Source: Minisyncoccia bacterium
Lineage (GTDB): Bacteria; Patescibacteriota; Minisyncoccia; Phycocordibacterales; UBA9973
Reading direction: 5' to 3'
Length of the DNA: 64,000 nt
NCBI GenBank assembly: GCA_039809265.1
Contig: JBDHUR010000001.1
Span: 5,914 to 69,913 of the forward strand
A model generated the notes under the pieces. That model had not been told where the DNA came from. It worked only from the letters and a program-made list of their open reading frames with translations, and made no database searches. The stretch's first letter is position 1; every line of letters starts with the position of its first letter. Positions 23,280 through 63,365 of this stretch are shown here, one piece after another. A program made the translations under genes and the position numbers.

Positions 23280-24002
23280 TTAACTCATAGCATCATAGTA
23301 TTCACATATATGCCTAGTGGCGAAATACCGTTTGCGTACACCTTGAACGATGACCTCTTTCAGCTTCTTGTCTATATCCCATTTATTCTCGTCATTGAAC
23401 CAAAGCATGTGCGTTACTTCCCTTTTTAGACAAAGAAAAAATTTGTTGCTATCTTTCGGTCGAACATTCTTTGAGATAAAAATAGAATACTTCTTAAGCT
23501 TAACGCTGTCATCGTCTATGTGCATAGAGTACAGCTTTATCGGCTTGCGGCCTTGCTCTTCCCAATAAGGCATGGAAACAGTAAATGGATGATGCGATGA
23601 GAGCAAAGACTTCACCTCATAATTATTTGGCACAGCAATATCGCTTACAAAGTAGTACCCTCGGCCGTCTCGCAAGAAATAATACTTTGAAAAATTCCTT
23701 GAGTTTTCATTCACTAAGCTGAAAATAATGTTTAGCTTCTTATCCTTCGGCATCTCATAATAATGTTTGTACTTGTTGAGGATGCCACCGTAGCTGGATT
23801 TCTCCAAGTTTAGCAGTATCTTTGCGGGAGCTTTAGAGATAAGGACTTTGTTTTTCATGTAAAGTTCCGGGTGAATGGACTGCGGTATCTCTATACAAGT
23901 AGAAGGAACAGTACTTGTTGTGTCTGGTTCTACCAGCGACAAGTTTTGGTAAGGATTTGACAGGTCATTTATGCTGACGAGGCAAGCTTGAATTTGTATC
24001 AT
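23280..24002 (-). CDS. Hypothetical protein (240 aa)
   Basis: Intact ORF between tRNA genes; Lys/Tyr-rich; no recognised motif. Confidence 0.5.
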   Translation of the reverse strand: MIQIQACLVSINDLSNPYQNLSLVEPDTTSTVPSTCIEIPQSIHPELYMKNKVLISKAPAKILLNLEKSSYGGILNKYKHYYEMPKDKKLNIIFSLVNENSRNFSKYYFLRDGRGYYFVSDIAVPNNYEVKSLLSSHHPFTVSMPYWEEQGRKPIKLYSMHIDDDSVKLKKYSIFISKNVRPKDSNKFFLCLKREVTHMLWFNDENKWDIDKKLKEVIVQGVRKRYFATRHICEYYDAMS

Positions 24003-24059: not shown

Positions 24060-24500
24060 TCAATATGTTATATTTGGGATCAATTTTACCCTAGCGGTAC
24101 GAGTAGGTATATGGATATACACACAATACAAATCTGCTTGCCACTCCCCCTCTATGGCTTTTTGGATTAAGTACGTTTGTATTGTCCTTAAGAACTTACG
24201 GACTTTTATTGAGTGCATATTTTCCTCTGGACGAAAATATGTCTGTTTTGATTTTTCCGTAAATTCAACGCTGCTACCACCCGTTTCATATGAAACGGGT
24301 GGTAGCGTTACACATGAAACAGCTTTAACTTCTATAAAATATATCTTTCTGTCTTTTGAAGCGACAATATCAATCTCACCCCATTTCTTTGTATAGTTAC
24401 GCTCTATAACCTTGAAACCTTTTGAAATAAGATATTTGCAAGCAATATCCTCGCCTAGTTCCCCTATTCTTTGAGTTTTTGATGTAAATACCTTTGGCAT
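24060..24500 (-). CDS. yraN: YraN/UPF0102-family (PD-(D/E)xK-type) endonuclease-like protein carrying an in-frame palindromic insertion
   Basis: 146 aa; 'GEDIACKYLISKGFKVIERNY...GEIDIVA...IYFIEVKA' matches UPF0102; ~25-aa loop insertion coincides with the 34-bp palindrome. Confidence 0.65.
   Translation of the reverse strand: MPKVFTSKTQRIGELGEDIACKYLISKGFKVIERNYTKKWGEIDIVASKDRKIYFIEVKAVSCVTLPPVSYETGGSSVEFTEKSKQTYFRPEENMHSIKVRKFLRTIQTYLIQKAIEGEWQADLYCVYIHIPTRTARVKLIPNITY
24273..24306. repeat. 34-bp perfect palindrome gctaccacccgtttcat|atgaaacgggtggtagc inside the yraN-like coding sequence
   Basis: Read directly; 17-bp arms with zero mismatches; core gtttcatatgaaac. Confidence 0.85.
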
Positions 24501-24518
24501 ATTATTTAAATATTACCT

Positions 24519-24547
24519 GTTTCATATGAAACTGTTTCACGTGAAAC
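24519..24547. promoter_or_regulatory. Two adjacent palindromic sites (gtttcatatgaaac and tgtttcacgtgaaaca) in the yraN-like promoter: candidate operator
   Basis: 14- and 16-bp perfect palindromes, centres 15 bp apart, 19-47 bp upstream of the minus-strand start codon; same core as the intragenic palindrome. Confidence 0.4.
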
Positions 24548-24812
24548 AATTTGTATATAAAAACTGTTAATTTTAAGTGTCCTAGAGATATATTCTGAAA
24601 AATGCTTATTTTGTAAGGGTATTTTAGTTTTAGACTTTTATAAACATTTCTTAAAAGTCATTTTGTAAAGGAAATTATGTGTCTTTTATGCACAAAGTAC
24701 ACAGAGTTATCCACAGTTTGTTGGTAAATATGGGTAAAAATGTGGATTAAAGGACACTTGCATATGCAAAGTTTTAATAGAATGCTGTCACAAGCTGTAC
24801 AAAAGGTCGTTG

Positions 24813-24883
24813 TGCGGCTAGGGAGAATCGAACTCCCGTCTCATCCTTGGCAAGGACGTGTTCTACCACTAAACCATAGCCGC
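24813..24883 (-). tRNA. tRNA-Gly (anticodon GCC), CCA not encoded
   Basis: Acceptor gcggcta/tagccgc; anticodon stem cgtcc/ggatg, loop ttgccaa; T-arm gggag-ttcgatt-ctccc. Confidence 0.75.
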
Positions 24884-24994: not shown

Positions 24995-25066
24995 GCACCC
25001 GTGGTGAAATGGATATCATACCGGTCTTCGGAACCGTTGTTGGGGGTTCGAATCCCTCCGGGTGCA
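24995..25066 (+). tRNA. tRNA-Arg (anticodon UCG), CCA not encoded
   Basis: Acceptor gcacccg/cgggtgc; D-stem gtga/tcat; anticodon loop cttcgga (U33, anticodon tcg); T-arm ggggg-ttcgaat-ccctc; 72 nt. Confidence 0.6.
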
Positions 25067-25081
25067 CAAAACTTTGGCTTT

Positions 25082-26587
25082 ATGAGCCACGACATAACAA
25101 AACCAATAAATAATAAACTTATACCCAGAGAAGTGCTCGGGGTAGTGGAGACGCTAGAGAAAGCGGGATTTGAAGCGTACTTGATCGGCGGATGCGTACG
25201 AGATCTTATTCTAGGCAGCACACCAAAGGACTGGGACGTAACAACCAACGCTGTCCCTGAGCAGATAGTTTCTTTGTTTTCAAAGACAGTTTACGAAAAT
25301 GACTTTGGGACAGTGGCCGTTATAGACGAATCATTGGACGTTAACCCAAAATTAAAGGCCATAGAAGTAACGCCTTATAGAACAGAAGGGAAATATAGTG
25401 ATTTTCGTCATCCAGATAAAGTATCTTTTAGTAAAGACATAAAGGACGACCTGCAAAGACGAGACTTCACGGTCAATGCGCTAGCCTACAACCCATCTAA
25501 AGGACATTTATTGGACTTATACGACGGTATAAAGGACATAAAAGACAGAAGGCTACGAACTGTGGGGGAAGCCTCTTTGCGCTTCACAGAGGACGCTTTA
25601 CGCATGATGCGTGCTATTCGCTTCTCCTGCCAGCTTGGCTTCACCATATCTTCCGAAACCATAGTAGGCATAACAGAAAATGCACCCCTCTTGAAGAATA
25701 TCTCCATGGAACGTATCCGGGACGAATTTATAAAAATAATAAATTCACCAGAACCTATGGTTGGGGTGGGAATGCTTGCCAAACTTGAACTTTTGCATTA
25801 CTTCGTGCCAGAGCTTGAAGAGGGTATAGGCTGCGAACAAAAAGGTGAGCACATATACGACGTTTTTGAACACATGCTTCACGCGCTAGAACATGCAAAG
25901 GAAAAAGGCTGGGATTTTGACATACGTTTGGCTGCGCTCTTGCACGACATAGGCAAGCCACGCACCAGACGCTGGGACGGCACAAAAGCAGGCGGAAGAG
26001 GGAAGTACACTTTCTATGGACACGAAGTAGTCGGAGCACGAATGGTAAAAAAAATATTAGAACGCTTACGCTTACCAAAAGATATTTCAGAGAAAGTAGA
26101 GAAACTTGTGCGATACCACATGTTTTTCTCTGATACAGAGACCATTACTTTGTCTGCTGTACGCCGTACCATAGTAAATGTCGGAAGGGAAAATATCTGG
26201 GAACTTATGAAGGTTCGTGAATGCGATAGAGCAGGGATGAGAAAGCCGGAAGCCCCATACCGCCTTCGTAAATACCACGCTATGATAGAGGAGGCTTTGC
26301 GGGCACCAACTTCTGTAGCAATGCTAAAGATAAAAGGAGAAACGCTGAAAGAGCTTGGCATAGAGCCAGGGCCAAGAATGGGCTTCATCCTGCACGCTTT
26401 GCTTGAAGAGTGTCTGGAAGATGATGCGAAAAATGGAATAGCATATTTGGAATCCCGTGCACTTGAACTAAATACTTTGCCAGATGCAGACTTGCGCAAA
26501 CTCGGCGAGAAGGGGAAGGAGAAGAAAGAGGAAGTAAACGAATCAGAGATAACCAAACTACACGAGAGACATAAGGTTAGAAAATAA
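25082..26587 (+). CDS. cca: CCA-adding tRNA nucleotidyltransferase with C-terminal HD domain
   Basis: Start at MSHDITKP (ORF-track start lies inside the tRNA); 'GGCVRDLILG...DWDVTT' pol-beta head, 'RRDFTVNALA', HD motif 'LLHDIGK'. Confidence 0.8.
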   Translation: MSHDITKPINNKLIPREVLGVVETLEKAGFEAYLIGGCVRDLILGSTPKDWDVTTNAVPEQIVSLFSKTVYENDFGTVAVIDESLDVNPKLKAIEVTPYRTEGKYSDFRHPDKVSFSKDIKDDLQRRDFTVNALAYNPSKGHLLDLYDGIKDIKDRRLRTVGEASLRFTEDALRMMRAIRFSCQLGFTISSETIVGITENAPLLKNISMERIRDEFIKIINSPEPMVGVGMLAKLELLHYFVPELEEGIGCEQKGEHIYDVFEHMLHALEHAKEKGWDFDIRLAALLHDIGKPRTRRWDGTKAGGRGKYTFYGHEVVGARMVKKILERLRLPKDISEKVEKLVRYHMFFSDTETITLSAVRRTIVNVGRENIWELMKVRECDRAGMRKPEAPYRLRKYHAMIEEALRAPTSVAMLKIKGETLKELGIEPGPRMGFILHALLEECLEDDAKNGIAYLESRALELNTLPDADLRKLGEKGKEKKEEVNESEITKLHERHKVRK

Positions 26588-36756: not shown

Positions 36757-38310
36757 ATGTCCTTTGGCAGAGTATATAGTGCTCAGACCAACGCCCTGAA
36801 AGGAGCGATAGTCACCATAGAAGCAGACATTACTAAAAACTCGCTTCATGCTTTTACAGTTGTCGGCTTGCCGGACAAAGCAGTGGACGAATCCAAAGAT
36901 CGCGTTTCCGGCGCATTGAAAAATTCCGGTTTCACTTCTCCGAAAAGCCAAAACCAGAAAATAGTTGTCTCTCTTTCGCCAGCAGACCTAAAAAAGGAAG
37001 GCCCGTACTTTGACCTTGCCATTGCACTCGGCTATTTGCTTTCGCTTGGCGATATAGATTTTGATCCGGAAGGGAAACTTTTCTTGGGTGAGCTTTCATT
37101 AAACGGCGAAGTCAAAAGCATAAAAGGGACACTGCCATTGGTACGCGAAGCCCGTGCAAAAGGTTTCAACGAAATATTCGTACCGAGAGAAAATGCCGAA
37201 GAAGCAGCTCTGATAGACGGCGTAGAGATTTATGCTGTCTCAAACTTGAAAGAAATCATTGAGCATTTGGACAAAAGCAAAAAAGGTGCGGATAAAACAG
37301 AGAGGGTTTTGCTTTCCCCAGTGCCAGCTACAAATATAGAATATGCGGAGCAAGAAAACATTGTGGATTTTTCTGACATCCGCGGACAAGAAGGCGCGAA
37401 ACGCGGACTAGAGATAGCAGCCGCAGGCGGACACAACATAGTCATGTCTGGCCCTCCGGGCACCGGCAAGACCATGCTTGCAAAAGCTTTCTCTGGCATA
37501 CTGCCACGGCTGACACTAGAAGAAGTACTAGAGTCTACAGGCATATATTCTGTAGCAGGAGCAACAGGCGGCAATCTTGTCACCGCTGCGCCGTTTCGCT
37601 CGCCGCACCACACAGCGTCTTATGTTTCCATGATCGGCGGCGGAACATTCCCAAAACCAGGAGAGGTAACACTGGCGCACCACGGAGTACTTTTCCTAGA
37701 CGAATTTCCGGAATTCGAAAAAAGAGTGATAGAAAGTTTGCGCCAACCACTGGAAGACAAGATAGTCACAGTCTCCCGCGCAAAAGGCTCGGTAACATTT
37801 CCATCCAAGTTTATACTCGTAGCAGCCATGAACCCTTGTCCATGTGGCAACAGAGGCGCCTTATATAAAGAATGCATTTGTAGAGCAAATGACCTTGCCA
37901 GATACCAACGCAAAATATCTGGCCCGATAATAGACCGCGTGGACATTTGGACAAATGTAGGCGAAGTAGAATATGAAAAACTTTCTACAGACGAACGCGA
38001 AGGAGAAACTTCCGAACAAATAAAAAAGCGCGTAGCCAAAGCTCGTGCACTACAAAGTAAACGCTTCCGCCAGCATCCGCGCGGCATAACAACAAATACA
38101 GAAATGAATACCCGCGACCTTACCAGATACGTTCCTCTTTCCGAAGAAACAAAGAAACTTTTGAATACGACAGCAGAAAAACTTGGACTTTCTGCCCGAG
38201 CGTACCATCGCATCATAAAGCTTGCTCGCACCATTGCCGACCTGGCGGACAGCGAACAAGTAGAAACCTCGCACATCTTGGAAGCTCTGCAATACAGGCC
38301 AAAATCCTGA
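36757..38310 (+). CDS. YifB/ComM-family Mg-chelatase-like AAA+ ATPase
   Basis: 517 aa; Lon-like N domain, Walker A 'GPPGTGKT', 'VLFLDEFPEF' Walker B, C-terminal ChlI/ComM domain. Confidence 0.85.
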   Translation: MSFGRVYSAQTNALKGAIVTIEADITKNSLHAFTVVGLPDKAVDESKDRVSGALKNSGFTSPKSQNQKIVVSLSPADLKKEGPYFDLAIALGYLLSLGDIDFDPEGKLFLGELSLNGEVKSIKGTLPLVREARAKGFNEIFVPRENAEEAALIDGVEIYAVSNLKEIIEHLDKSKKGADKTERVLLSPVPATNIEYAEQENIVDFSDIRGQEGAKRGLEIAAAGGHNIVMSGPPGTGKTMLAKAFSGILPRLTLEEVLESTGIYSVAGATGGNLVTAAPFRSPHHTASYVSMIGGGTFPKPGEVTLAHHGVLFLDEFPEFEKRVIESLRQPLEDKIVTVSRAKGSVTFPSKFILVAAMNPCPCGNRGALYKECICRANDLARYQRKISGPIIDRVDIWTNVGEVEYEKLSTDEREGETSEQIKKRVAKARALQSKRFRQHPRGITTNTEMNTRDLTRYVPLSEETKKLLNTTAEKLGLSARAYHRIIKLARTIADLADSEQVETSHILEALQYRPKS

Positions 38311-56636: not shown

Positions 56637-57476
56637 ATGGACAATCAAGAAATTATTCAAAAAATACAAGACCTATATGCTAGCGTTCCTGGTGCGCTAC
56701 AAAAAGCTATAGTTTCTTCAGATTATCAAAACAAAATTGTAGATATAGGCAAAAACAACAAACTAACAGTTGCACAGCTTGGGGACTTGGAACTTGTCAC
56801 AACATTTGTCATGCTCGGAGCAACTTCACCTAATAATTATAAAAGTGAGATTGCCGAAAAGCTTGGAATACAGGACGAAGCCGTAGTGAATAAAATAGTG
56901 GATGATGTAAACACACAAATATTTTCTACTATTCGTAATGAGCTAAAGGAAATAAATACACCAATAGAAGAAGAGGATGATGATAGCGAGACTTTTTGGC
57001 ATCACAGCGAGGAAGAGATGGATGCTGCCGGGTTTCAAGCAAACAACACGGCTGAAACAAACACCACATCCATACAGACTGTAAGCGCTAAAGACCAAGC
57101 GGAGCTAGAGAAATCTGGAATAGAGATAGAGAAAACACGCCCAACTTCCGAGGAATATGTGAAGGCAACAGTACTACCAAACTCTGGACTACCAGCATCT
57201 GGACTTCAGACACGCGAAAATATCCTAAATGGCATAGAGCACCCTACGGAAAGCAAGCCTTCATTTATAGACAAGCAATTCTCTGGTGTTTATACCATGC
57301 CAACAAAAGAGACAACATATACACCAAAACCTGTGGCGCCTGCGCAGACAGGCGCCACAGGTAAAGCAGCTGGCCCCGCTCCAATACCTGCACCAAAAGC
57401 GCCATCGACAGACTTGCCAACAAATACAGCAGGCGAGCCACCAGCAAAAATTGATCCTTATAGGGAAATAATATAA
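56637..57476 (+). CDS. Hypothetical acidic, Pro-rich cytoplasmic protein within the T4SS-like block
   Basis: 279 aa, no TM. Confidence 0.45.
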   Translation: MDNQEIIQKIQDLYASVPGALQKAIVSSDYQNKIVDIGKNNKLTVAQLGDLELVTTFVMLGATSPNNYKSEIAEKLGIQDEAVVNKIVDDVNTQIFSTIRNELKEINTPIEEEDDDSETFWHHSEEEMDAAGFQANNTAETNTTSIQTVSAKDQAELEKSGIEIEKTRPTSEEYVKATVLPNSGLPASGLQTRENILNGIEHPTESKPSFIDKQFSGVYTMPTKETTYTPKPVAPAQTGATGKAAGPAPIPAPKAPSTDLPTNTAGEPPAKIDPYREII

Positions 57477-57493
57477 TAGCTGAAAGCTGCCTT

Positions 57494-57910
57494 ATGCAAT
57501 TCAAAGTCCCACAATTTATAGATGTTGAAGACAAAATTTTTGGACCTTTTACGTTCCGACAATTTTTGTATCTGGCTGGAGGAGCGGGGATATGCTTTTT
57601 ACTTTACAAAACTCTGCCCCTCGTTGTAGCTATAATTATAATGTTGCCGGTCATAGCTCTTTCTCTTGCTTTGACTTTCTATAGAGTAAACGAAAAACCT
57701 TTCATATATATACTTGAGGCATATATAGGCTACCTTGGCAAAAACAAGCTGTACGTTTGGAAAAAAGCTCCGCCGGAAAAGAAAAGCACAGACAAGACAG
57801 ACGCTGCACAGAAACCGGCAGCAGAGAGTTACGTGCCAAAGCTTTCTGAAAGCAAGCTAAAAGACATATCTTGGAGTTTGGATGTGCTGGATGTAAATAA
57901 AGGCAATTAA
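57494..57910 (+). CDS. Small two-TM protein, VirB3/PrgI-like
   Basis: 138 aa; 'FTFRQFLYLAGGAGICFLLY' resembles the VirB3 'L(T)RP..FLGVP' region; lies upstream of virB4 as in most T4SS loci. Confidence 0.45.
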   Translation: MQFKVPQFIDVEDKIFGPFTFRQFLYLAGGAGICFLLYKTLPLVVAIIIMLPVIALSLALTFYRVNEKPFIYILEAYIGYLGKNKLYVWKKAPPEKKSTDKTDAAQKPAAESYVPKLSESKLKDISWSLDVLDVNKGN

Positions 57911-57939
57911 CAATTAAAAAACAAAATTGGTGATACAAT

Positions 57940-58605
57940 GTGCCATATATGGCTTTGAATGCTAGAGCAACTCAAGATTTTGTACCGATACAAGAGGTCA
58001 GAGACGGCGTCATAATACTAAAAGACGGCGGGGTACGAGCTGTTTTGCTTGCTTCTTCTATAAACCTCTCTCTCAAGTCCGCGGATGAACAGCAGGCTAC
58101 CCTTTTACAGTTTCAGACTTTTTTGAACTCGTTAGACTTTTCTACACAAATATCTGTCCAGTCCCGAAGGCTAGACATACGTCCATACTTAAACTTGCTG
58201 GAAAACAGGATGAAAGAACAGCTTGAGCCGTTGCTTAAAATACAAACAAGGGAGTACATAGAGTTTATAAGGTCTTTTACAGATAGTGTAAATATAATGA
58301 CAAAAAGCTTTTTCATAACCGTACCGTACACCCAACCTGCACTTTCTGCCGGCGGAGCAGTTAGCGGACTGAAGAATTTGATCCCTGGGCAAAAAAGCCA
58401 GCCGGATAAAAAAAGCACTGAGCAGCTGGACTTTGAAGAGAAAAGGAGTCAACTGGACCAGCGCATAGGGGTAATACAGCAGGGTTTGTCTCGTGTAGGT
58501 ATCCGCACAGTGGAGCTTGGGACAGAAGAGATAGTGGAGCTATTTTACAAAATTTTCAACCCAGGAGAAGTTACACAATCTATAAAACTAGATACGCAAA
58601 GCTAA
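57940..58605 (+). CDS. VirB4/TrbE N-terminal domain encoded as a separate ORF
   Basis: 221 aa; 'VRDGVIILKDGGVRAVLLASSINLSLKSADEQQ' matches the VirB4 N-terminal 'LEDGSIMSIARIDGVAFELEE' region; 'FFITVPY' matches VirB4 'LTLVVYP'. Confidence 0.6.
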   Translation: MPYMALNARATQDFVPIQEVRDGVIILKDGGVRAVLLASSINLSLKSADEQQATLLQFQTFLNSLDFSTQISVQSRRLDIRPYLNLLENRMKEQLEPLLKIQTREYIEFIRSFTDSVNIMTKSFFITVPYTQPALSAGGAVSGLKNLIPGQKSQPDKKSTEQLDFEEKRSQLDQRIGVIQQGLSRVGIRTVELGTEEIVELFYKIFNPGEVTQSIKLDTQS

Positions 58606-58609
58606 CAAC

Positions 58610-60445
58610 ATGGCAATTTTAGACTTCTTAAAAAAGAAAACAGACGCTGGAAATAATAAAAGGGCGGTTTTGCCTGTTTTACCTACAGAAATATACGAAG
58701 CGGCAACATTAGAGTTCAAAGATATTATAGCGCCTTCGGCGCTAAAGATAGAGCCGAAGGCGCTAAACCTTGGAGACAAAATGGCACGCACTTTCTTTGT
58801 CATATCTTATCCAAGGTATTTGTCAGACAACTGGTTCTCTCCGATCATAAATTTGGACAAGATATTTGATGTATCCATCTTCATACACCCCATAGAAACA
58901 GCCAAAATTTTGCGAGACTTCCAGAAAAAGGTAGCGGAAGTGCAAAGCCAGATAAGCATCCGCGAAAGCAAAGGTCTGGTGCGAGACCCGATGCTGGACA
59001 CTGCATACCAAGACCTAGAATCTTTGCGAGACAACCTACAGCAAGCGCAAGAGAAGATATTTGATGTTGGGCTTTATATTACAGTTTACGGCAATAACGA
59101 AAACGACTTGTTCAAGATAGAAAACGAGATAAAGTCTATATTGGAATCAAAGCTGGTATACTTGAAACCTGCCCTTTTCCAGCAAGAGGAAGGCTTTGAC
59201 TCTGTGATACCCATAGGCAATGACATACTGAACGTGCACCAAAAACTAAACTCCGAACCGCTTTCATCCATCTTCCCATTTGTTTCTTTCGACCTAACTT
59301 CCGACAAAGGAATACTTTACGGGGTGAATAGGCACAACTCTTCACTTGTTATATTTGACAGATTTTCTCTTGAAAACTACAACTCTATCATCTTTGCAAA
59401 GTCAGGCTCTGGAAAATCTTATGCTACGAAGCTGGAAATACTTCGTACACTCATGTTTGACACAGAAGTTATTGTCATAGACCCGGAAAGAGAGTATGAG
59501 TATTTAGCTGAAGCAGTGGGTGGAAGATACTTCAACATATCACTGTCTTCGCAACATCACATAAACCCTTTTGACTTGCCGGTGCCGCGAGAAGACGAAA
59601 CCCCGGCAGATGTGCTTCGTTCTAATGTCATAAACCTCGTTGGCCTATTCCGTATCATGCTTGGCGGATTGACCCCAGAAGAAGACTCTATAGTAGACAG
59701 AGCAATAACAGAAACTTACGCAATCAAAGACATAACTGCAGACTCCGACTTCTCCAACATTGAACCGCCGCTTTTGACAGACTTTGAGATGGTGCTTGCT
59801 GGCATGGATGGATCAGAGTCTCTGATACAACGCCTAACCAAGTTCACTAGAGGCTCTTGGTCTACATTTCTAAACCAGCCATCAAACGTAGACATAAATA
59901 AAAAATTCGTAGTGTTCTCCGTGAGAGACATGGAAGATGAGCTGAAGCCGGTAGCAATGTACATAGTCACGCACTTTATCTGGAACGCCGTGAGAAAGAC
60001 ACTGAAAAAACGCCTCTTAGTGGTGGATGAAGCTTGGTGGATGATGAAGTCAGACGACACAGCCTCTTTCCTTTACTCTATAGCCAAGCGAGGCAGAAAG
60101 TACTACTTGGGACTTTGCACCATAACCCAAGACGTGGGAGACTTCATGCGCAGTCCATACGGCGTACCCATCGTTACAAACAGCTCCCTACAACTCCTAT
60201 TGAAACAGTCTCCGTCTTCTATAGACCTGCTGCAAAAAACCTTTAATCTTACAGACGAAGAAAAATATCTGCTACTGGAATCCAATGTCGGGGAAGGGAT
60301 ATTCTTTGCCGGACTAAAGCATGTTGCTATAAAGATAATATCTTCATATACAGAAGACCAAATAATAACTTCCGACCCATCGCAGGTGTTAGCAATAAAG
60401 AAATCAAAGGATGAACTAGAAGCAGCGGAACGCGGTGTAAAGTAA
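58610..60445 (+). CDS. VirB4/TraC/CagE-family T4SS ATPase (middle plus C-terminal ATPase domain)
   Basis: 611 aa; 'FFVISYPRYLSDNWFSPII' (VirB4 'IYSFREYP' region), Walker A 'AKSGSGKS', Walker B 'LLVVDEAWWMM', downstream 'LGLCTITQD' motif. Confidence 0.8.
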   Translation: MAILDFLKKKTDAGNNKRAVLPVLPTEIYEAATLEFKDIIAPSALKIEPKALNLGDKMARTFFVISYPRYLSDNWFSPIINLDKIFDVSIFIHPIETAKILRDFQKKVAEVQSQISIRESKGLVRDPMLDTAYQDLESLRDNLQQAQEKIFDVGLYITVYGNNENDLFKIENEIKSILESKLVYLKPALFQQEEGFDSVIPIGNDILNVHQKLNSEPLSSIFPFVSFDLTSDKGILYGVNRHNSSLVIFDRFSLENYNSIIFAKSGSGKSYATKLEILRTLMFDTEVIVIDPEREYEYLAEAVGGRYFNISLSSQHHINPFDLPVPREDETPADVLRSNVINLVGLFRIMLGGLTPEEDSIVDRAITETYAIKDITADSDFSNIEPPLLTDFEMVLAGMDGSESLIQRLTKFTRGSWSTFLNQPSNVDINKKFVVFSVRDMEDELKPVAMYIVTHFIWNAVRKTLKKRLLVVDEAWWMMKSDDTASFLYSIAKRGRKYYLGLCTITQDVGDFMRSPYGVPIVTNSSLQLLLKQSPSSIDLLQKTFNLTDEEKYLLLESNVGEGIFFAGLKHVAIKIISSYTEDQIITSDPSQVLAIKKSKDELEAAERGVK

Positions 60446-60491
60446 CAGTTTTCCCTCGTTTTTTTGCTCAAAGTATTTTATACTTAGATAG

Positions 60492-61529
60492 ATGAAGATA
60501 AGCATATTTGCAAACTCGTTTAGAAAGTTTGCCTTAAAAGCGGTGTTGGCTTTTGCTTTTTTGTCTATACTTATTTCACCAGCCAACGCTTTGGCTCAAT
60601 CTTTGCTTGATTCTTCTTTTACTGCCAACGATGTATCGGTGGAACTTTCACCGGAAATACCGGCACCGAACCAGACTTTGACGATATCTTTAACAAGCTA
60701 CACGGTAGACCTAGATAAAGCGCGAATGACTTGGACACAAGACGGCAAGATAAAAAACAGTGGGACCGGCATAAAAGAGTTCAGTGTGCAAGTGGGTGAC
60801 GTGGGCTCAACAACAACCATAGATGTATCTATAGTTATAAATGGATTGAATAGATTTGACAAAAGGATAGTTGTCAGCCCCTCAGAAGTAGACATGTTGT
60901 GGGAAGCGGTAGACTCTTATGTTCCACCGTTCTATGAAGGAAAAGCACTGCCTTCATCCGAAGCTGTAATAAAAGTTGTGGCAATACCCAACAACAAGAC
61001 AAACAATACCGACATTCAAACCGGCAACTTTGTTTACAATTGGAAAAAGAACTTTGCAGCAGACCAAAGCGCATCTGGCTTTAGTAAAAATAGCTACGTT
61101 TTCAAGGCAAGCTACCTGAATGCAGAAGAAACAATATCTGCAAATGCAGCCTCAGTATCTGGCAACAGTGGCGGGGAAGGAAGCGTAACCATAGTGACAG
61201 GTAAACCTAAAATAATATTCTATGAAGACGCAGCAGGCATCGGCCCTGTATATGCCAGTGCCTTGAACCAAGGCTATAGACTGACCAACAACGAAGCCAC
61301 GGTCGTAGCCGTGCCGTATTTCTTCTCTGTGAGCAATCCTGCCGCCAAAGACTTGCTTTACAGATGGAGCATAAACAACAACAACATAGACACGCCTTCA
61401 CCGGCAAATACACTTGTCATAAAAAGCGCCGGGGAAACAGGACAAGCAAAAGTTGGCTTGCACTTGGAGTCCGCAAGTAAACTTTTCCAATCCATAGACC
61501 AGACATTTTTTGTAGACATAATAAAGTAA
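60492..61529 (+). CDS. Secreted protein (345 aa) in the T4SS-like block
   Basis: Signal peptide 'ALKAVLAFAFLSILISPANALA'; beta-rich composition. Confidence 0.5.
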   Translation: MKISIFANSFRKFALKAVLAFAFLSILISPANALAQSLLDSSFTANDVSVELSPEIPAPNQTLTISLTSYTVDLDKARMTWTQDGKIKNSGTGIKEFSVQVGDVGSTTTIDVSIVINGLNRFDKRIVVSPSEVDMLWEAVDSYVPPFYEGKALPSSEAVIKVVAIPNNKTNNTDIQTGNFVYNWKKNFAADQSASGFSKNSYVFKASYLNAEETISANAASVSGNSGGEGSVTIVTGKPKIIFYEDAAGIGPVYASALNQGYRLTNNEATVVAVPYFFSVSNPAAKDLLYRWSINNNNIDTPSPANTLVIKSAGETGQAKVGLHLESASKLFQSIDQTFFVDIIK

Positions 61530-61535
61530 AGCAGT

Positions 61536-63365
61536 ATGACTTTCAAAAAGATAATGAAAAATAAGGCGATGATAGCAATGAGGATTTTTATTGTTGCATT
61601 CATCGCATCCTTGCCATTTATCTCTCGTGCAGTATCTGGAACAGAAATGCAGACCAACGAACTGACAGACACTTCTGTACTAATAACCGGACGCATATTA
61701 AACCCAGACAACCAAAGCGTAAAAATAGGCACAGTAGAGCAAAACAACCCGCAAGCTTCATATGTATATACCAACCCGTTTACCTTGCTGGATGATGCCA
61801 GTGTGCCGCCAATAGAGGGTAGGACAGGAAATACTACAGGGTATGGGAACACAAGTGTGGGGGAAAGAACTGGTAAAAACAATACTACAGGATATGGTAA
61901 TACAAGCGTGGGAGAAAAAGGTGTTTACAATAACACTTCAGCTTATGGAAACACTGGTGTTGGAGAAAAAGGCTCCGCATACAACAGTGTGGTGTACCAA
62001 ACCATCTCTGGCCTTGCACCAAATACTACATACTGCTCTGTGGTAGTAGATGCCAGCGATCCTTCCAATACACCTATATATGGCAGTGAGATATGCTACA
62101 CCACACTTGCAACAGGCGCTTCATATAAAAATGGGGAACTGACAAGTGTGGTATTAGACACACAGTCAATGACAGATACTAGTGCAACGATAAAGTTTAT
62201 GGTAAATCCAGACGGAAAAGCACTCGGACTTAGCCTAAAATATGGCGTTGGCAAAAAGGACTTTACAGACAGCGACTATACCAAAGACATAGGGGAATTC
62301 TTCCGCACTGCGACGACCACTTCCAACAGCCTGCCTGCAACAGCAGAGATCAAAAATCTAGAGAAAGATACAACTTACTATTATGAAGTTTACAACACAG
62401 ACACAAAAGAAGTTTACCACGACAACTTATTCACAACAGCTGCTTCTGCCGGCACAGTTATAAACCAAAACAGCAGTAATACCACAACAACAACTACATG
62501 CGTACCAGGGGAGTACTGCTTGCTTGCTCCGCTTCCGGGACTTTCAAAGATAAATGTACAAACGACAGGTATAGGCGGATACCTTGCAATAATATTCAAG
62601 ATAGGTATAGGCCTTGCTGGAGTATTGGCTGTGGTGATGCTGGTAGTTGGAGGCATACAGTACATGTCTACAGATGCGTTTTCTGAAAAAGCAGATGGCA
62701 AGTCTAGAATGATGAATGCAATCATTGGGCTTCTGCTTGTCCTTGGTGCATGGGTTATACTAAATACACTAAATCCAAATTTGCTCATATTCAATCTGGA
62801 TTTACAGAAGGTTTCTATAACAGTTGACCCTTCTCTCATAGATAGTGATGAAGCAGAGACACAACCACCAACTGGTGCTAACTACACATCATATCCATAT
62901 AAAAATCGAGACAAAATAGACGATGTTTTTCCAACACCTAAAACATCTGATATGCTTGGCACACTCAAAACTTTAAATGTCGATGTAAGTGGTTCAAACA
63001 GTTCAAAACCCATCTGTGATACAGTTGGACAAACAGGCTGCACAGCATTGGCTGGCATACCTTCAAAGGTTACTGTTGGGCTGCAAAAAATTAGGACAAA
63101 GTGTCCTAATTGTGAACTTACAATAACTGGCGGAACAGAATTTTGGCTTCATAAATCACATGGTCCTGGAAAAGATAAGATTGACTTAAGAAACAACTCC
63201 CGGGCCTCAAACTTTGTAAAATATGTGACTAGCGGTAAAAAAATAGGGCAGATAACTGGGTGGGGTGTACTGTATGTTACAGATGGAATAGAGTTTGTTG
63301 ATGAGGGAAATCATTACCATGTCTGGGGTTGGAATAATGACCATGCTTCAAGTTATAATAAATAA
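61536..63365 (+). CDS. Composite surface protein: signal peptide, GYGNTSVGE repeats, FN3-like modules, VirB2/TrbC-like double-TM hairpin, C-terminal LAS-metallopeptidase-like domain
   Basis: 609 aa; 'GGYLAIIFKIGIGLAGVLAVVMLVVGGIQYM...GKSRMMNAIIGLLLVLGAWVIL' hydrophobic hairpin; 'HKSHGPGKDKIDL' and 'EGNHYHV' resemble H-x(n)-D / H-x-H zinc motifs. Confidence 0.5.
   Translation: MTFKKIMKNKAMIAMRIFIVAFIASLPFISRAVSGTEMQTNELTDTSVLITGRILNPDNQSVKIGTVEQNNPQASYVYTNPFTLLDDASVPPIEGRTGNTTGYGNTSVGERTGKNNTTGYGNTSVGEKGVYNNTSAYGNTGVGEKGSAYNSVVYQTISGLAPNTTYCSVVVDASDPSNTPIYGSEICYTTLATGASYKNGELTSVVLDTQSMTDTSATIKFMVNPDGKALGLSLKYGVGKKDFTDSDYTKDIGEFFRTATTTSNSLPATAEIKNLEKDTTYYYEVYNTDTKEVYHDNLFTTAASAGTVINQNSSNTTTTTTCVPGEYCLLAPLPGLSKINVQTTGIGGYLAIIFKIGIGLAGVLAVVMLVVGGIQYMSTDAFSEKADGKSRMMNAIIGLLLVLGAWVILNTLNPNLLIFNLDLQKVSITVDPSLIDSDEAETQPPTGANYTSYPYKNRDKIDDVFPTPKTSDMLGTLKTLNVDVSGSNSSKPICDTVGQTGCTALAGIPSKVTVGLQKIRTKCPNCELTITGGTEFWLHKSHGPGKDKIDLRNNSRASNFVKYVTSGKKIGQITGWGVLYVTDGIEFVDEGNHYHVWGWNNDHASSYNK

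Follow-up and report, generated by a model that had tools for sequence, protein, structure and literature searches.

A perfect palindrome of 34 bp lies in frame within yraN, a gene for a nuclease of the UPF0102 family, in a 64,000-nucleotide stretch of the genome of a Minisyncoccia bacterium (assembly GCA_039809265.1, contig JBDHUR010000001.1, positions 5,914 to 69,913; this whole stretch is referred to below as the window, and coordinates are counted from its first letter). With a probability of roughly 0.75, we consider the palindrome to be an in-frame parS-type centromere site, one of four that mark an origin-proximal partition locus of the Paceibacteria chromosome. In the ParABS systems, ParB dimers nucleate on parS, close as clamps that depend on cytidine triphosphate (CTP) and slide, and the partition complex segregates origins and recruits SMC. 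The case for a site of this kind at yraN is built on the parS identity of the four sites, their clustering, their conservation across 80 species, the constraint on synonymous positions, the origin signals nearby, an ancestral core with derived arms, and the predicted disorder of the protein loop into which the palindrome falls; binding by ParB and the events downstream of it would follow by analogy. The host gene, the palindrome and the four sites are located as follows:

24060-24500, minus strand: yraN (UPF0102, PD-(D/E)xK nuclease family), 146 amino acids; both in-gene sites fall in a loop, residues 63-90, that is predicted to be unstructured
24273-24306, no strand: perfect palindrome of 34 bp with 17-bp arms, in which a species-specific 9 bp extends each arm of a parS-like core; encodes YraN residues L66-S76
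24282-24297, no strand: parS-like site B, in the gene, CGTTTCATATGAAACG, 2 mismatches; read in frame as (P)-V-S-Y-E-T
24306-24321, minus-strand reading TGTTTCATGTGTAACG: parS-like site A, in the gene, 2 mismatches; read as (A)-V-S-C-V-T
24518-24533, minus-strand reading AGTTTCATATGAAACA: upstream parS-like site, 1 mismatch, non-coding, 33 nt before the yraN ATG
24533-24548, no strand: upstream perfect-consensus parS, TGTTTCACGTGAAACA, 48 nt before the yraN ATG

The parS-like sites at yraN

The chromosomal parS motif is conserved as "mainly TGTTNCACGTGAAACA" and has been listed for Firmicutes, Actinobacteria, Proteobacteria and Deinococci (PMC7022226). This 16-bp inverted repeat is matched at yraN by one perfect site, one site with a single mismatch and two sites with two mismatches. 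All four are located within 270 bp, and none other with two or fewer mismatches is present in the 64 kb, so that within the window the copies are few and clustered in an origin-proximal position. The two upstream sites are arranged in tandem and overlap by one base. Site A immediately follows the catalytic EVK motif, at a position (+179) that is conserved across the clade and where the codons are biased toward parS. Site B, the centre of the palindrome, occupies position +203, which holds parS-like sites in relatives too; its 16-mer CGTTTCATATGAAACG differs from TGTTTCAYRTGAAACA at the two outermost positions only, and by its sequence it qualifies as a candidate parS.

Copies of the 14-bp core GTTTCAYRTGAAAC number four in the 64 kb, where 0.05 would be expected, and each of them is at yraN: two in the open reading frame (ORF), at 24283 and 24307 (the latter with one mismatch), and an abutting upstream pair at 24519 and 24534. 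A full-text literature search with TGTTTCACGTGAAACA retrieved ParB/parS papers only. A first-pass annotation of the window, made from the letters alone, had singled out this core and had offered, as its second suggestion, an element that binds a protein and is tolerated within an ORF; the core recurs at yraN and proves to be the canonical parS motif, a match that supports this suggestion.

The palindrome and its host protein

The full palindrome, GCTACCACCCGTTTCATATGAAACGGGTGGTAGC, is composed of the halves GCTACCACCCGTTTCAT and ATGAAACGGGTGGTAGC and is free of mismatches. Its 17-bp arms make it the longest spacer-free perfect palindrome of the window, compared with longest arms of 7-12 bp in 100 dinucleotide shuffles. 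The same peptide, LPPVSYETGGS, is encoded by both strands because the palindrome is self-complementary (...TLPPVSYETGGSS... in the minus-strand ORF, ...LLPPVSYETGGSV... in a plus-strand ORF at 24154-24396). The annotation had described the palindrome, its perfect 17-bp arms, its position inside a yraN-like ORF and the shared peptide, all of which are borne out by the coordinates, the Pfam match to UPF0102 and the two translations. Ten independent assemblies of the same species (SPAdes, MEGAHIT and metagenome-assembled genomes from NCBI, from differing samples) contain the palindrome without change and at an identical position within the gene; hence it is no assembly artefact but a real feature, fixed in the population.

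Assignment of the host protein to the YraN/UPF0102 family is supported by a Pfam score of 61.3 bits (cut-off 23.6), by the invariance of D44, E57 and K59 (the D...E-x-K motif) in 34 homologues and by a profile match to the solved UPF0102 protein 3FOV. The homologues come from Patescibacteria, for which Candidate Phyla Radiation (CPR) is another name, namely Nomurabacteria, Paceibacterota and Minisyncoccia. In the AlphaFold model, residues 63-90 are without secondary structure, with a predicted local distance difference test score below 50 for residues 71-88 and at least about 90 beyond the loop, and the loop is accordingly predicted to be disordered. Between the EVK and RPEENMH motifs, it is about 20 amino acids longer than in 3FOV. 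The loop expansion noticed in the annotation is thus genuine, but it is not caused by the palindrome: a long loop, of about 15-43 amino acids, is common to all relatives in the clade, and the loop of the nearest relative, P0002, is 29 amino acids long compared with 30 in the window. Loop length shows no overall correlation with the number of parS units (Spearman 0.12), and 3-4 units are found only in the longest loops (37-43 amino acids); tandem parS units account for part of the variation in loop length, not for all of it.

Other short GC-rich hairpins, with S-P-Y-K-G-E-like peptides, are found in the YraN loops of L097 (~515-540; e.g. TCCTCCCCTTATAAAGGGGAGGA), L053 and L011 (e.g. CTCTCCTACCTTAGGAGAG). 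These do not resemble parS, and similar hairpins, CTCCTTAxxAAGGAG, turn up at scattered other places in the same loci.

Conservation of the sites across Paceibacteria

For comparison, 80 species-representative loci of Paceibacteria and Nomurabacteria (709 kb) were scanned for the 16-mer, with Y/R permitted at the centre. The scan yielded 173 sites with at most one mismatch, where we estimate that about 0.03 would be expected by chance, and all of these are in the cca-yraN locus. Seventy-five are located within 200 bp upstream of yraN and cover 65 of the 80 loci (76 of 80 when two mismatches are allowed), 29 are inside yraN, from +170 to +450, and about 60 lie 0.5-1.5 kb upstream, within the divergently transcribed cca gene. 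Past +450 from the yraN start, the downstream flanks of the 80 loci contain no site with one or no mismatch. The non-coding DNA around the upstream sites aligns poorly even between the closest relatives; therefore, judging by the alignments, the conservation of these sites is at the DNA level. In the loop, a parS-like site is present in 60 of the 80 species and is read in the V-S-(R/H/C/Y)-E-T frame in every case.

Most relatives (L011-L090) also have in-frame parS-like V-S-x-E-T sites in cca, ~0.5-1.5 kb upstream of yraN; these recur at two positions and are found within lineage-specific insertions. The cca gene of the window (25001-26587) has lost them, and the homologous spot reads ISSET, ATATCTTCCGAAACC.

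Constraint at synonymous positions

All 107 of the 107 parS-like sites in the loop region are in a single frame, xxT GTT TCA YRT GAA ACA, which translates as V-S-(R/H/C/Y)-E-T, and the spacing of the in-gene sites is either 24 or 27 bp. The codons at these sites depart strongly from those used elsewhere, with p values from 1e-4 to 1e-12. Valine is encoded by GTT in 74 of 80 and 31 of 32 cases, as opposed to 35 of 84 for the invariant valine of the EVK motif in the same gene (p=1.5e-12 and 1e-8, respectively); glutamate is GAA in 67 of 69 cases, compared with 112 of 168 in the comparison set; arginine is CGT in 29 of 50 cases (20% in the background) and AGA in 2 of 50 (32% in the background). 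The middle residue alternates between R, H, C and Y, which are chemically unrelated and have only the codon pattern YRT in common. An additional site at +64 in relatives, which is lost in the window species, uses the other open frame, K-F-L-M/V-K-H, with rare codons: CTC in 63% (13% in the background) and AAG in 81% (24% in the background). The pinning of synonymous codons to the parS sequence indicates selection at the DNA level, and conservation as DNA is seen at both the non-coding and the synonymous positions of the sites.

Origin of the extended arms

The part of the palindrome that is specific to the window species appears to be the 9-10 bp extension of each arm, with an ancestral core, judging from an alignment of the loop DNA with that of its four nearest relatives (61-76% protein identity). 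Site A, GCTGTTTCATGTGTAAC, does not vary between the window species and these four. The site B core, GTTTCAYATGAAAC, is common to the window, P0002 and P0004 at the same codons, and the flanks in P0002 and P0004 are unrelated. The left flank consists of conserved Thr-Leu-Pro codons in all four relatives, and the right flank varies by species. On the right side of the core, the window has 10 nt, GGGTGGTAGC (Gly-Gly-Ser, GGT GGT AGC), that match the reverse complement of the left flank exactly and differ from the His-Glu-Asn codons of P0002 at 8 of 10 positions. P0002 has the 16-bp core only, and the net change in the loop is +3 nt.

The right arm is the reverse complement of a conserved left flank and the length of the loop is nearly unchanged, which is what would be expected of templated mutation, not of insertion; the locus combines an ancestral imperfect palindrome with a clustered change in the flank and no large indel. 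The arms were thus likely derived by hairpin-templated (quasi-palindrome) mutation. The reverse complement of the Thr-Leu-Pro codons would have overwritten the 9-10 nt that follow the ancestral core on its right, the probable route being intrastrand template switching at the hairpin (quasi-palindrome correction), and this change would have been tolerated because the loop is unconstrained. Template-switch mutagenesis at quasi-palindromes is described by the Ripley model, with reported hotspots in Escherichia coli thyA and lacZ.

Arms are also extended at other parS sites of the clade, namely in L015 (a 36-bp perfect palindrome at an upstream parS), L083 (26 bp), and L026 and L096 (24 bp each). 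Among about 85 loop sequences compared, the next longest arms after those of the window are 10 bp. Most likely, the extension has no separate function, although an effect on ParB binding, cruciform formation or the mRNA is conceivable. Selection that favoured greater palindrome length, or a hairpin in the RNA, may also have contributed.

Genomic setting and origin signals

In the clade, the gene order is conserved as cca, tRNA-Arg(TCG) and tRNA-Gly(GCC), spacer, yraN, tRNA-Pro and tRNA-Gly(TCC). The relevant features upstream of yraN in the window are:

24686-24749, spacer between tRNA-Gly and yraN: three DnaA-box-like 9-mers, a candidate oriC or DnaA-binding element; 24686-24694, TTATGCACA; 24707-24715, TTATCCACA (perfect); 24741-24749, TAATCCACA (minus strand)
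24812-24883, minus strand: tRNA-Gly(GCC), a conserved pair with tRNA-Arg between yraN and cca
24995-25067, plus strand: tRNA-Arg(TCG), a conserved pair with tRNA-Gly between yraN and cca
25001-26587 (ORF as listed), plus strand: cca, CCA-adding enzyme, divergent from yraN

The spacer (24549-24811) is AT-rich, with 29% GC in the window and a mean AT content of 70% in the clade compared with 63% overall. A perfect DnaA box, TTATCCACA, is present within 450 bp upstream of yraN in 73 of 81 species, usually 120-165 bp from the first parS, and the density of DnaA boxes is 3.4 per kb in the spacer compared with about 0.06 per kb elsewhere. On the yraN-sense strand, more than 80% of the species have a GC skew that is negative upstream and positive downstream. 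This shift is still seen when only genes of one coding strand are compared (plus-strand genes, 0.035 upstream and 0.103 downstream, p=1e-4; minus-strand genes, -0.142 and -0.027, p=3e-19) and is therefore not a coding-strand artefact. The cumulative skew of the window reaches its minimum at about 22.7 kb. The dnaA-dnaN genes, at a distance of 43 kb from yraN, lie just outside the window on its right side and follow the jag-yidC-rnpA group, and each dnaA flank contains three DnaA-box-like 9-mers. The parS cluster is origin-proximal on any reading and may adjoin the actual oriC; both yraN and dnaA, each with DnaA-box-like 9-mers, are candidate locations.

The tRNA-Arg(TCG)/tRNA-Gly(GCC) pair is inverted as a unit in L012, L024, L038 and L054. 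A type IV secretion/conjugation-like cluster (PrgI, TraC-like, TraG P-loop ATPase, type IV secretion pilin) occupies 56637-63365 and continues into the right flank (L093), directly upstream of jag-yidC-rnpA-dnaA-dnaN. Several natural-transformation genes are found in the vicinity of yraN (24060-24500), including those for ComM, a Mg-chelatase-like helicase (36757-38310, plus strand), and RecJ (740-2437), and a gene for ComEC (Competence/DUF4131) is located just to the left of the window (L091:19377-20852). The ORF directly downstream of yraN (23280-24002, minus strand) encodes a 240-amino-acid protein without a Pfam match. This protein was considered as a partner of YraN and rejected, given the lack of a Pfam match and its location next to yraN only in the closest relatives (e.g. 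L097), not in the 80 loci.

Proposed mechanism and points against it

By analogy with known systems, ParB dimers would use their helix-turn-helix domains to recognize the 16-bp inverted repeat and would then form closed, CTP-dependent clamps that slide to adjacent DNA, giving rise to a partition complex that positions the origins and loads SMC. The four sites would serve as a nucleation cluster for ParB. Placement within a gene could be possible given that one of the two stop-free frames of parS reads V-S-(R/H/C/Y)-E-T, a peptide that falls in the predicted disordered surface loop of YraN.

A broader scenario, which we put forward tentatively and rate at slightly less than an even chance, is that the spacer between cca, the tRNA pair and yraN is a previously undescribed origin and centromere of Paceibacteria. 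The parS array would have spread in frame into both flanking genes as V-S-x-E-T units of 24 or 27 bp, with gain and loss of sites and growth of palindromes generating the loops of YraN and of the CCA-adding enzyme, and the 34-mer would be a snapshot of this process.

Several observations weigh against the assignment of the palindrome to a parS-type partition locus. At site B, the central CG is replaced by TA and the outermost T/A by C/G. At the +179 site, the serine codon (parS position 7) drifts between TCA, TCT, TCG and TCC, and the in-gene sites appear to be less constrained than the upstream ones because this third codon position drifts. The template switch is read from one comparison, at 76% protein identity. 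ParB, ParA and SMC domains are absent from all ORFs of at least 150 amino acids in the window (Pfam); a six-frame search for the GERRxRA motif likewise returned nothing. A tblastn search with Bacillus subtilis Spo0J (a query validated by Pfam as ParB_N + HTH_ParB + ParB_C) found no match in the window or in loci L001-L090, including the ±5-kb flanks of the 80 relatives, and neither parB nor parA was found in the ±10-kb flanks of the window, the DNA searched being about 10% of a genome. Literature searches on parS/ParB in Patescibacteria, CPR and Saccharibacteria returned nothing relevant.

Alternative explanations

Given that ParB was not found in the window, its flanks or the related loci searched, the sites might instead be operators for some other protein, involved in autoregulation of YraN or bound by a competence regulator, or the palindrome might be a cruciform substrate of YraN acting as a structure-specific nuclease. 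The sites in the window are indeed specific to yraN and are located between a promoter-like match and the ATG, and the abstract of a recent preprint presents YraN as the nuclease partner of ComM in the transformation D-loop pathway (bioRxiv 10.1101/2024.02.06.579203). The same abstract, however, describes a single-stranded DNA endonuclease and mentions no sequence specificity. Under this explanation, the exact match to a pan-bacterial parS consensus would be a coincidence, and the same sites are present inside the neighbouring cca gene in most relatives. The co-location of the DnaA box and the GC-skew switch also fits a chromosome-maintenance locus better than a gene-specific operator. We therefore regard an operator or cruciform function as unlikely, even if it is the best of the alternatives.

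Slightly more improbable still is that the element acts as an RNA hairpin with a 15-bp stem that controls translation, RNase cleavage or stability of the yraN mRNA, the resemblance to parS being secondary. RNA folding, which the annotation had proposed as a check, does give a strong structure for the 101-nt region (-34 kcal/mol, z=-5.3 relative to shuffled sequences), and the upstream sites, being downstream of the promoter-like match (24599-24570), may also be transcribed. Such folding is expected of any perfect palindrome, however, and the stem is not conserved: a long stem is present in one of about 85 species, and the conserved part is the 16-bp parS consensus, with a weak stem of 5-6 bp. 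What the clade conserves is the outer parS positions and the spacing, not the strength of the stem. An Rfam scan of 22.5-25.5 kb (E<=1) detected only tRNAs and sub-threshold noise.

The in-frame insertion of a small mobile palindromic element, such as a Rickettsia palindromic element (RPE) or a hairpin resembling miniature inverted-repeat transposable elements or repetitive extragenic palindromes, was the first suggestion of the annotation, and we now consider it very improbable. The palindrome is in frame and falls in a variable loop, where some relatives (L097, L011) have other short hairpins. However, RPEs are about 100-150 bp in length, far longer than 34 bp, and form dispersed families, whereas the 34-mer is single-copy in the window, even with up to 3 mismatches allowed, and in its flanks (~83 kb of the genome in total), and no copies are seen in relatives. 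The pair of arms with any 14-nt core has no match among 241 million metagenome contig records from JGI, and the one match in the viral contigs of IMG/VR is judged to be unrelated. The core is ancestral at its codon position and the left arm is orthologous Thr-Leu-Pro coding sequence. Alignment with the nearest relative does not reveal a correspondingly shorter gene devoid of the element: P0002 keeps the core in a loop of nearly the same length without the extended symmetry, which is the kind of orthologue that the annotation had itself set against its proposal.

The IMG/VR match is in a phage-like contig (L098:3799-3840, IMGVR_UViG_3300003873_000054), an intergenic perfect palindrome of 42 bp. 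Its outer arms (GCTACCACCC...GGGTGGTAGC) and its centre, TCATATGA, are those of the window palindrome, but its core, ACATCATATGATGT, is not of the parS type. It is identical to the window 34-mer at 28 of 34 positions, and the contig is otherwise without similarity to the window; the match is probably due to chance.

As improbable as a mobile element is the notion that the symmetry arose incidentally from selection on the protein for repeated V-S-x-E-T, with no DNA-level function: conservation of the peptide and drift of the serine third positions at +179 speak for it, but synonymous positions are biased to parS relative to invariant residues of the same gene, the interchangeable middle residues share only YRT codons, the loop is predicted to be disordered, and the identical motif is conserved upstream in non-coding DNA.

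Implications

The parS assignment would account for an odd palindrome in a coding sequence by a well-understood element, the ParB-parS mechanism being textbook knowledge. For a large uncultivated class on which we found no ParB-parS literature, it would locate the likely centromere and probably also the origin of replication, and might provide an anchor for origin calling, for peak-to-trough estimates of replication rate and for future genetics of Patescibacteria. In this respect, the class-wide locus at cca-yraN that combines parS, DnaA box and skew switch may be more useful than the palindrome itself. The locus also appears to be a case of overlapping codes, in which an array of DNA-binding sites dictates the amino acids of a protein loop and probably the variation in its length.

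Comparison with known systems

The sites at yraN resemble chromosomal parS of ParABS systems in that a perfect 16-bp copy and close variants of it are few, clustered, close to origin signals and conserved throughout the class. They differ in that the central dinucleotide varies as YR (CG, TG/CA, TA), one site in the window has arms extended to 34 bp, no ParB was found in the DNA searched here, and the cluster is located at cca-yraN, 43 kb from dnaA, and not at parAB/gidAB.

A parS embedded in an ORF has a precedent in B. subtilis, where parB (spo0J) contains the site TGTTCCACGTGAAACA (PMC4333373). Unlike this gene, yraN of the clade has 2-5 in-frame sites per gene with a tandem period of 24 or 27 bp; these form much of a hypervariable loop, and the host is a nuclease gene and, in relatives, also cca. 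The reading frame is shared: in the Spo0J sequence used as a query above, TGTTCCACGTGAAACA is read as V-P-R-E-T, the same frame as in the yraN sites.

As in quasi-palindrome mutagenesis, the window has a pre-existing short inverted repeat and a clustered multi-base change that makes the flanks complementary at nearly constant length, and extensions of this kind recur at other parS sites of the clade. In contrast to that process, the case in the window is read from interspecies comparison only, concerns a change that became fixed in a natural population and affects coding DNA. With RPEs, the palindrome has in common its in-frame translation within a tolerated loop; it differs from them in being much shorter, with an ancestral core and no dispersed family or other copies found.

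Compared with these systems, the element is best described as a parS-type site, that is, one of a known kind, made mildly unusual by an in-frame array that would shape a hypervariable loop and by a palindrome that has apparently grown to 34 bp.

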